64,000 nt of DNA, from positions 10,019 through 74,018 of IMG/VR virus record IMGVR_UViG_3300035492_000103. The stretch is one strand, 5' to 3'. The stretch is from a virus. This document shows, in pieces, positions 40,883 to 42,314 of the stretch; position 1 is the stretch's first letter, and each line of letters starts with the position of its first letter. The translations under genes and the position numbers were made by a program. The notes beneath the pieces are model-generated. The model searched no databases. It was not told the origin of the DNA and saw only the letters and a program-made list of their open reading frames with translations.

Positions 40883-41089
40883 TTAATTAAAAAAATCTTC
40901 CAATTTTATTCCAACAGGGAAACTAACTTTATTGTTTTTACCTGGTGTAATAGCTATACCAGACCTTTCCGTAAATCGGTTAACATCTTCCTGATTCCTA
41001 AAACGAATCATCAGTTTCCGTTTTTTTGGTCCTGTATCTTCACCTTTTAAGTGAGCATTAGGTTCATAATACATTGATTTTTTAGCCAT
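40883..41089 (-). CDS. Small protein resembling the N-terminal domain of the adjacent glycosyltransferase
   Basis: Start MAKK at 41089 overlaps upstream stop; LMIRFRNQEDVNRF..SGIAIT. Confidence 0.6.
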   Translation of the reverse strand: MAKKSMYYEPNAHLKGEDTGPKKRKLMIRFRNQEDVNRFTERSGIAITPGKNNKVSFPVGIKLEDFFN

Positions 41090-42314
41090 TATCAACTTCC
41101 TCGTCAAGTTCTGTTTCTTCAATATAGATTTTTTCTAATTTCATACCATACTCTGAATCAGGATTAACATGATAATCTTTGGCATAAATTAGGCGTGTTT
41201 TTCTAAATGGTGAATAATCTACATAATGGTGCCAACGACCGTGCATCCATTTCAATTCTGCTACATCTGGATGCATATCAACAAGCATTTGTGACTTAGG
41301 TAATGTGCCCTCTTTACCATAGAACGCTTCCGTATTACCACCTTTTACTGCTTGAGTTACCAATTTTCCAGTAGAGAATGCATTATATTGAATTGTGCAA
41401 AATCCATCTTTTAATACTCGCAATGACAAGTCAGTATCTTCATTATATCGACCTCTCCAACGGTATGGAATGTCATTTCTGATTAATAATGTTGAATAAA
41501 TCCGACAATTTTGTAAAAATGGTGGGCGATTTTTATCTGGTACAACAAAGAACTTATAATGTGGTCCACTAATGTAGACATTTTCAAACCTGTCTGTATG
41601 GTCTTCCATTGCACGCCACATTGCTGCACTCATATTATAGTACCGCATATCCTGTTGTGATCTGAAAAATCTGCGCTGGTTATCATCAAGAACCCAATGT
41701 CGCTTATATCCCAATGACATAGAGTGTTCCCATGCAAAGTTTCTTGCTGGACCAGGACCTTTTGATTTTGTATTTCCTAAATCATCAAAAGTGTCATATT
41801 CGTCAAAGTATTTCTGCGGAATGGTGATTAATGTTACCCAATTTGGATCCACCTTAGCTGCATATTTTTCCAACTGAGATTCTTCCACCACCATATAGTG
41901 TTTTATACCCTGTTCAATCAACGATTCTGATGTCATTCTGACATCCCATCTTGACTTAGAAACAATATAAAATGGATATTTTGGATAATTGTCAGGATTT
42001 ATAGGTTCACCGCGATGGTGTTCACCAGAATAACCTATTGTATAATCACTACGGACTAACTTTGGATACCAAAGAGTTTTTGATCTGTCTGTAACAGTTT
42101 GTTCAATAATTTCTGCAAATTTCTGTACAGATTCTTCATCACCTTCTTCAAATTCAACTTCAAGTGAAGCATATGCCTCTTTTGTTCTCACGTTTGCTGG
42201 GTCATAGTGTGGCATACCATCCCACATATCCCAAGGATTATCTTCGGAAGCATATCTCGGATTTTCGTATGATAATCCACCAAACACATTCAATACTTTA
42301 TTATTCCTACTCAT
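41082..42314 (-). CDS. GREB1/TET-associated (TAGT-like) glycosyltransferase
   Basis: YPFYIVSKSR, G.GPARNFAWEHS, WVLDDN, RWRGRYNEDTDLSLRVLK.G.C, KGGNT. Confidence 0.75.
   Translation of the reverse strand: MSRNNKVLNVFGGLSYENPRYASEDNPWDMWDGMPHYDPANVRTKEAYASLEVEFEEGDEESVQKFAEIIEQTVTDRSKTLWYPKLVRSDYTIGYSGEHHRGEPINPDNYPKYPFYIVSKSRWDVRMTSESLIEQGIKHYMVVEESQLEKYAAKVDPNWVTLITIPQKYFDEYDTFDDLGNTKSKGPGPARNFAWEHSMSLGYKRHWVLDDNQRRFFRSQQDMRYYNMSAAMWRAMEDHTDRFENVYISGPHYKFFVVPDKNRPPFLQNCRIYSTLLIRNDIPYRWRGRYNEDTDLSLRVLKDGFCTIQYNAFSTGKLVTQAVKGGNTEAFYGKEGTLPKSQMLVDMHPDVAELKWMHGRWHHYVDYSPFRKTRLIYAKDYHVNPDSEYGMKLEKIYIEETELDEEVDNG

Follow-up and report, generated by a model that had tools for sequence, protein, structure and literature searches.

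A two-gene phage glycosyltransferase cassette of the TAGT family with two diverged copies of an adaptor domain

Introduction

The TAGT family of glycosyltransferases (Pfam PF20691) reportedly received its name from Iyer et al. in 2013. The TAGT enzyme of phages T2 and T6 adds a second glucose to alpha-glucosyl-hmC in DNA (PMC13216743; PMC13390438), and GT-A enzymes associated with 5mYOX glycosylate 5hmC in DNA (bioRxiv 10.1101/2023.12.21.572611). GREB1, a further member of the TAGT family, glycosylates protein and is described as an O-GlcNAc transferase (PMC7968844). Furthermore, a phage DNA dioxygenase acts on dsDNA upon activation by ParB-type proteins (PMC13229309). In a survey published in 2026, a solitary TAGT was recorded in 288 of 753 phage genomes and its function was called undefined (PMC13216743). 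Among glucosyltransferases, the enzyme of Aeromonas phage Aeh1 has been entered as one that presumably acts on DNA at an unknown base (PMC8056088); Aeh1-type DNA was regarded as largely unmodified, and Petrov et al. did not place Aeh1 and phage 65 among the phages carrying gene 42 and recorded them as lacking gene 56 (PMC2993671).

Here, a TAGT gene and the small gene coupled to it are described in the window, i.e., the whole 64,000-nucleotide stretch of viral DNA that was analyzed, which lies in a 106-kb IMG/VR contig estimated to be 67% complete. The nearest isolate, judged by the polymerase, is Pseudomonas phage pf16 with 56% identity, and the TAGT gene is the only one in the contig. This report is focused on the structure of the enzyme, its relationship to the small protein, the distribution of the shared domain among viruses, and the probable acceptor of the sugar.

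Organization of the Cassette

Both genes are located on the minus strand, at the positions that the first-pass annotation had assigned to them. The 410-aa glycosyltransferase gene (41082–42314) encodes a copy of the adaptor domain, referred to as copy B, followed by a GT-A core and an acidic disordered tail, and the gene of the 68-aa free adaptor copy, referred to as A′, lies downstream (40883–41089). Copy B comprises residues 24–89 (42048–42245, minus strand), which are matched by an HMM of stand-alone adaptor ORFs at E 1.8e-12, and the TAGT catalytic domain comprises residues 113–325 (41340–41978, minus strand) in the Pfam envelope, the same place being obtained in a second search. At the junction of the two genes (41082–41102, minus strand), as read from the sequence, the ATG of the 68-aa ORF (41087–41089) overlaps the TAA stop of the 410-aa ORF within ATGGCTAA, and a GAGGA element (41098–41102) is separated from this ATG by an 8-nt spacer. 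The 68-aa ORF is translationally coupled to the glycosyltransferase gene. A sigma-70-like promoter match, TTTACA-17-TAAAAT, is located 30 nt upstream of the start codon of the 410-aa ORF (42345–42373, minus strand) and, as a match to the consensus only, would suit early expression; the total of such matches in the region is not above the shuffled expectation.

Several neighboring features deserve mention in their own right. A tRNA-Met gene (42423–42498, minus strand) lies directly upstream of the glycosyltransferase gene, and 12 further tRNA genes are clustered at 34796–37589 on the same strand. The next gene after the cassette (40485–40751, minus strand) encodes an 88-aa protein starting with MKKFTDFIAE and is preceded by two sigma-70-like promoter matches of 11/12 (40784–40878, minus strand); if this protein is an injected anti-restriction protein, its adjacency to the glycosyltransferase would be suggestive. 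The region 50146–52829 (minus strand) harbors a 360-aa GT-B glycosyltransferase (51747–52829; Glycos_transf_1, 3.4e-7) just downstream of the DNA polymerase gene and two genes from a 236-aa MazG-like nucleotide pyrophosphohydrolase. Among isolated phages, the sole match to this GT-B protein is a weak one, in Rhizobium phage RL2RES, and its gene is not associated with TAGT there; the protein may represent a modification enzyme in addition to, and independent of, the TAGT enzyme. Furthermore, an 818-aa protein (55343–57799, minus strand) contains an ADP-ribosyltransferase exoenzyme domain (PF03496, 3e-15) and is probably an Alt-like packaged enzyme.

Structure and Active Site of the Enzyme

The 410-aa protein matches the TAGT profile over residues 113–325 with 137.8 bits against a cut-off of 27.5 (6.2e-40) and the PHROG family phrog_842 at 1.3e-55, which bears out the family membership proposed in the first-pass annotation. 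No solved relative of the TAGT profile was found by sequence. The AlphaFold2 (AF2) model, which was built on 44 homologues and with no partner included, has a pLDDT of 89.3 and a pTM of 0.88, and it matches solved GT2-type GT-A enzymes, namely SpsA, TarP, GalNAc-T1, and cellulose and hyaluronan synthases, with VIA-align Z scores of 11–13.8. The GT-A fold, on which the first reading of this locus had been made to depend, is therefore retained. The model also matches viral TAGT models in BFVD with E-values down to 8e-25.

In an alignment of 44 sequences, R122, D210-D211-N212, and E292-D293 are invariant, and these residues correspond to the R...DDD...ED residues of phage DNA GT-A enzymes (bioRxiv 10.1101/2023.12.21.572611). 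The active-site pattern R...DDD...ED(Y/F) is thus recognizable in the enzyme, with Asn at the third position and Thr after ED in the whole branch.

Relationship Between the Small Protein and the N-Terminal Domain

The 68-aa protein is a diverged paralogue of the N-terminal domain of the enzyme, as judged from profile comparisons. A pairwise BLASTP comparison of the N-terminal 112 residues with the 68-aa ORF gave no alignment, and the relation is detected by profiles only; likewise, when homologues of the 68-aa ORF and of the C-terminal tail of a relative, P0045, were sought by word-index searches, the only sequences retrieved were the queries. An HMM built solely from 15 upstream stand-alone ORFs of other phages was searched, with filters off, against 1,577 six-frame ORFs from the window and six phage loci. 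Its matches are confined to the TAGT N-termini (1e-7 to 1e-17) and the small ORFs located downstream, of which all four were found (9e-7, 1e-6, and 5e-6, and 2.3e-4 for that of the window), the next match being at 0.27. In the reverse direction, 3,340 ORFs were searched with the downstream-ORF HMM, the only matches of which were the stand-alone ORFs, at 1e-8 to 1e-3. When 11 downstream ORFs from phage records and metagenome contigs were compared with the stand-alone family by hhalign, the probability was 97.1% with E 6.3e-11 over 42 columns. The resemblance that the first-pass annotation had noticed between the N-terminal segment and the small ORF is accordingly real at the profile level, where BLASTP is blind to it; its suggestion of a duplicated small domain stands, and the wider two-copy adaptor system and the divergence in charge of the free copy had escaped it.

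The two copies have in common a core of strand, helix, and strand with the consensus hh.VRF..-ED...F..l.G..IT.k.K.i.(F/Y)P. In copy B, a W..MP motif is followed by the core elements LEVEFEE, SVQKFAEIIEQ, and KTLWYP, and in A′ the core KLMIRFRNQEDVNRFTERSGIAIT...KVSFP lies between a YYEPN head and an L.DFF tail. The small ORF is named A′ because it lacks the W..MPEF head and has the L..FF tail, as do the first (A) copies of tandem adaptor pairs. Overall HMM scores did not separate the tandem copies A and B as the closer relative of A′ (20.1 versus 13.9 bits for the window ORF). The free small ORFs were excluded from the full-length alignment, because MAFFT scatters them over the N-terminal half when they are included.

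The copies also differ in charge. In the window, A′ is basic (pI 9.9, +6), as are all 11 of the A′ proteins (median pI 9.6, +4), and residues 1–112 of the enzyme, which include copy B, are acidic (pI 4.7, net charge -9), in line with the stand-alone B proteins (pI about 5). The split into basic A′ and acidic B fits a heterodimer, and A′ could possibly present a surface facing the nucleic acid.

Conservation of the Gene Pair and Natural Fusions

A gene for A′ is found directly downstream of the fused-type enzyme gene, abutting or overlapping it, in all 11 cases examined, which comprise Aeromonas phage Aeh1, phiAS5, POP12, seven metagenome contigs, and the window. The surroundings of these 11 pairs differ and include helicase/UvsX, Band_7/antiholin, gp23, and peptide deformylase/SbcCD genes, among others. 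A′ is kept at approximately 30% identity in the 11 loci, each time with its own start codon, a ribosome-binding site, and family-specific head and tail motifs.

Furthermore, five relatives (P0045, P0040, P0038, P0088, and P0066) carry a C-terminal extension that is homologous to A′ over its full length. The downstream-ORF HMM matches the C-terminal tails of P0045, which is 56% identical to the window enzyme, and P0040 with 46.6 and 46.5 bits, respectively (E 5e-14), and the fusion tails and A′ have the motifs YYNPEG (head) and SL.DFF (tail) in common. By their sequences, these five proteins are natural fusions (B-core-linker-A′) of the two genes in the window, and both products therefore almost certainly work as one unit. 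The partner subunit that had been postulated for the enzyme is borne out in this way by the conserved pair and by the fusions.

A tree was calculated from 285 core columns, with the truncated gene calls P0047, P0071, and P0073, which start inside the core, left out. One branch, with an SH-aLRT of 100, has all 45 of the B-core and B-core-A′ rows on the same side, and the A′ fusions arise in at least two places within this group; according to the core tree, the B-core and B-core-A′ forms have one origin. Monophyly of the fused forms had been rejected in a first test, the cause of which was the nesting of the three truncated calls among them.

The conservation of A′ bears on whether it is a working subunit at all. 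The small ORF might instead be a decaying remnant of the duplication, or a competitor that blocks the N-terminal domain of the enzyme, and its weak pairwise similarity to that domain and the missing W..MPEF head of copy B would suit such an origin. However, in at least two lineages A′ shares a single reading frame with the enzyme, which would not be expected of a remnant or an inhibitor, nor does decay agree with the retention of start codon, ribosome-binding site, and motifs in 11 of 11 loci, and this explanation is considered very improbable.

The manner in which the two copies may pair is suggested by comparing models. The AF2 model of the fusion P0045 (pLDDT 86, pTM 0.83) contains a disordered linker (393–422) followed by the tail, in which a strand (426–432), a helix (435–445), and a further strand (455–458) are predicted with pLDDT 76–92, and the N-terminal copy has strands at 48–54 and 77–80. 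In the window enzyme, modeled without a partner, the segments equivalent to these two N-terminal strands are confident and are not strands. We infer from such secondary-structure differences, which are between models of two different proteins, that the two adaptor copies may form a joint sheet.

Formats of the Adaptor Family

The adaptor domain is a large viral family of approximately 3,160 clusters that always accompanies the TAGT branch to which the window enzyme belongs. In a search of 1.84 billion proteins, its profile matches 3,163 cluster representatives at E up to 1e-3, the majority being stand-alone proteins of 80–110 aa. No match to the domain was found in Pfam, PHROGs, or PDB sequences (best PDB E 0.33), and the ESM Atlas clusters give it no name, their neighbors all being viral "hypothetical proteins."

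Five formats are distinguished. In the first, the adaptor is a free gene upstream of the core: the N-terminal part is a separate gene of 80–100 aa in 22 of the 24 IMG/VR loci found with the enzyme and in two additional loci (25 loci other than the window in a further count), and in these split loci it overlaps the start of the core gene of ~287 aa. Split-type loci carry exactly one adaptor copy, and the second copy therefore goes with the fused form. The second format is a free tandem pair A-B (P0126, P0130–P0132, P0134, P0150, P0167, and P0187), whose A copies, like the window-type downstream ORFs, have no W..MPEF head and carry an L..FF-like tail at their end. The third is an A-B-core fusion (P0144, P0155, the Tenacibaculum PTm1 enzyme, and, as a sub-threshold trace, the enzymes of Vibrio phage Kuja). 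In the fourth, a ParB_N domain precedes the adaptor in the same polypeptide, as in P0253 (27.9 bits, cut-off 26.3); such fusions are found in other members only, the 106-kb contig containing no match to ParB_N (PF02195). The fifth is the window type, with B fused to the core and a free copy downstream. One large branch of orphan TAGTs thus comes with an obligatory, unnamed adaptor in interchangeable genetic formats.

Some members of the family are unusual. The top match of the adaptor profile, P0122 (7,727 aa), has 59 matches, all to profile positions 11–38 with the W..MPEF head, and looks like a repeat protein. P0123 and P0207 have weak LAGLIDADG-like matches in front of the adaptor domain, which suggests homing-endonuclease or intein insertions in the adaptor gene family. 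In phage Kuja (NC_048827, Ackermannviridae), the region 1506–4194, directly after the DNA end protector gene, encodes a tandem of TAGT paralogues (452 and 446 aa). A second adaptor copy may precede each of them, but its trace stays below the threshold (i-E 25 and 77). The tandem pair is a candidate for sequential glycosylation, and a single ThyA-family gene (206 bits) is found in this phage.

Acceptor of the Sugar

The first-pass annotation had seen no hydroxymethylase in the window. A search for the ThyA family found none there or in the whole 106-kb contig, and in T4, the positive control, it found both td exons and gene 42, the latter at 58.3 bits. In the same contig, TET/JBP proteins gave no match in a search run without a positive control, no C5-methylase was found, and there was no match to the alpha-GT or beta-GT profiles (PF11440 or PF09198), again without a positive control and in a contig that is 67% complete. 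In the complete genomes of Aeh1, phiAS5, and POP12, which carry the two-gene form, the ThyA-type search shows only thymidylate synthase; in POP12, a Pectobacterium phage, that gene is in two pieces approximately 260 bp apart, comparable to the intron-split td of T4. Three phages of 34–37 kb with the split module, 98–100% complete, likewise lack a ThyA-family or TET match (TET without a control). The absence of a ThyA-type hydroxymethylase from the contig, the complete relatives, and the small phages makes the usual hydroxymethyl-pyrimidine acceptor doubtful.

These searches bear directly on the most conventional role, that of a second-sugar transferase of the T2/T6 type acting on glucosyl-hydroxymethylcytosine, for which gene 42 and the first transferase would have to lie in the unsequenced third of the genome, or the first transferase would have to be the GT-B gene at 51747–52829. 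RefSeq and PHROG label the relatives as beta-glucosyl-HMC-alpha-glucosyltransferase, the contig is only ~67% complete, and the window also encodes a dNMP kinase, the MazG-like pyrophosphohydrolase, and the GT-B enzyme. However, the label is a family name and not a tested activity, and the T-even TAGTs are absent from the tblastn matches at E 1e-5 and share only ~16% identity with the window enzyme in a structure alignment. The failure to find a ThyA-family gene in 106 kb by a search that finds T4 gene 42, the lack of alpha- or beta-GT matches in the uncontrolled searches, and the complete genomes in the same enzyme group that are without gene 42 (see also PMC2993671) render a T2/T6-type role quite improbable.

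DNA is favored as the target by the fusions of the adaptor with ParB_N domains, by the precedent of ParB-type activators of dioxygenases, and by the placement of the cassette among replication genes, since it adjoins genes of a DnaB-like helicase, UvsX, a dNMP kinase, and a family-B DNA polymerase (T4-type replication). From this analysis, DNA is the likely acceptor, with a probability put at slightly better than even. A non-DNA substrate, such as a phage or host protein (cf. GREB1), an RNA, or a small molecule that the adaptor pair recognizes, is judged unlikely. Proteins and polysaccharides are the substrates of the enzymes with the closest solved folds, GREB1 transfers O-GlcNAc to protein (PMC7968844), and adaptor-TAGT modules are also present in near-complete P22/lambda-like phages that rely on replication by the host and are without base-modifying genes. 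The gene context was examined in one of the three small phages (L047) and in a fourth contig (L048), both of which are P22/lambda-like and encode no DNA polymerase; in L047, O/P-like replication genes immediately precede the cassette. The window cassette also sits among tRNA and small-RNA genes, but the neighborhood varies between relatives and the RNA genes therefore carry little weight. The ParB_N fusions speak against a non-DNA substrate, as does the fact that all characterized phage TAGTs act on DNA.

A more specific proposal is that the adaptor-equipped TAGT branch glycosylates canonical phage DNA, at a base, the backbone, or an end, or another nucleic acid, without any hydroxymethylase or dioxygenase, B and A′ together engaging the substrate. 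It is put forward tentatively and is regarded as rather unlikely. If true, thousands of phages, lambdoid phages among them, would share a nucleic-acid modification of a new class.

Proposed Mechanism

The preferred reading, to which we give fairly good though by no means full credence, is a two-gene, two-subunit glycosyltransferase cassette in which B and A′ pair and phage DNA is the likeliest acceptor. The large subunit is the TAGT GT-A enzyme, to the N-terminus of which an acidic copy B of an adaptor of ~45–70 residues with a strand-helix-strand structure has become fused, and the coupled 68-aa product is the basic, diverged second copy A′. B and A′ most likely pair into one small module of a sheet and helices docked on the enzyme; other phages supply the equivalent module as a free or tandem adaptor protein or as a fusion to a ParB-like domain. 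The enzyme is predicted to move a sugar from a nucleotide-sugar to the acceptor, most likely phage DNA early in infection, and basic A′ may assist in engaging the nucleic acid. Judging from the genomes available, the acceptor would not be a standard hydroxymethyl-pyrimidine made by the phage.

If the acceptor is DNA without a hydroxymethyl precursor, the cassette would represent a new route of phage genome decoration, with a bearing on restriction, on GmrSD- and Brig1-type defenses against modified DNA, and on the choice of phages for therapy. The cultivable phages Aeh1, phiAS5, and POP12 carry the same gene pair and provide a concrete experimental handle.

Comparison With Known Systems

The beta-glucosyl-HMC-alpha-glucosyltransferase of T2/T6 has PF20691, the GT-A fold, a T4-like phage setting, and the RefSeq name of the relatives in common with the window enzyme (PMC13216743). 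The two are very distant, with no tblastn match at 1e-5 and ~16% identity by structure; the adaptor domain was not found in the T-even TAGTs by tblastn, and neither gene 42 nor an alpha- or beta-GT was found to accompany the window enzyme. The GT-A enzymes associated with 5mYOX/TET in phage metaviromes and the base-J glucosyltransferase of kinetoplastids (Pyle et al., bioRxiv 10.1101/2023.12.21.572611) share the GT-A fold and the R...DD(D)...ED residues. The enzymes of Pyle et al. have a proven transfer of sugar to 5hmC DNA and adjoin a methyltransferase and a dioxygenase, whereas none of these neighbors was found in the window contig; furthermore, the window enzyme has Asn as the third residue of its DDN motif and a two-copy adaptor, which is unmentioned in that paper.

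The ParB-dependent thymine dioxygenases of phages (O'Toole et al., PNAS 2026, PMC13229309) offer a parallel of another kind, since a DNA-modifying enzyme there needs a small partner for dsDNA and the adaptor is fused to ParB_N in some relatives of the cassette. They belong to another enzyme class, however, and the partner in the window is a paralogue of the enzyme's own N-terminal domain in a contig without ParB_N.

The same arrangement as in the window is found in Aeromonas phage Aeh1, where ORF087c (Aeh1p093) encodes an enzyme with 59% identity and is followed by a homologous 66-aa gene, Aeh1p092. The latter is annotated only as hypothetical, and no mention of its link to the N-terminal domain was found in the literature consulted. 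Similarly, no description of a two-copy adaptor system in permuted and partly fused form was found there, although Iyer et al. 2013 may mention the N-terminal domain. The enzyme family is already known and the Aeh1 homologue has been flagged in the literature; what the present analysis contributes is the paralogy at the profile level, the natural fusions of the two genes, the common origin of the fused forms, and the divergence in charge.
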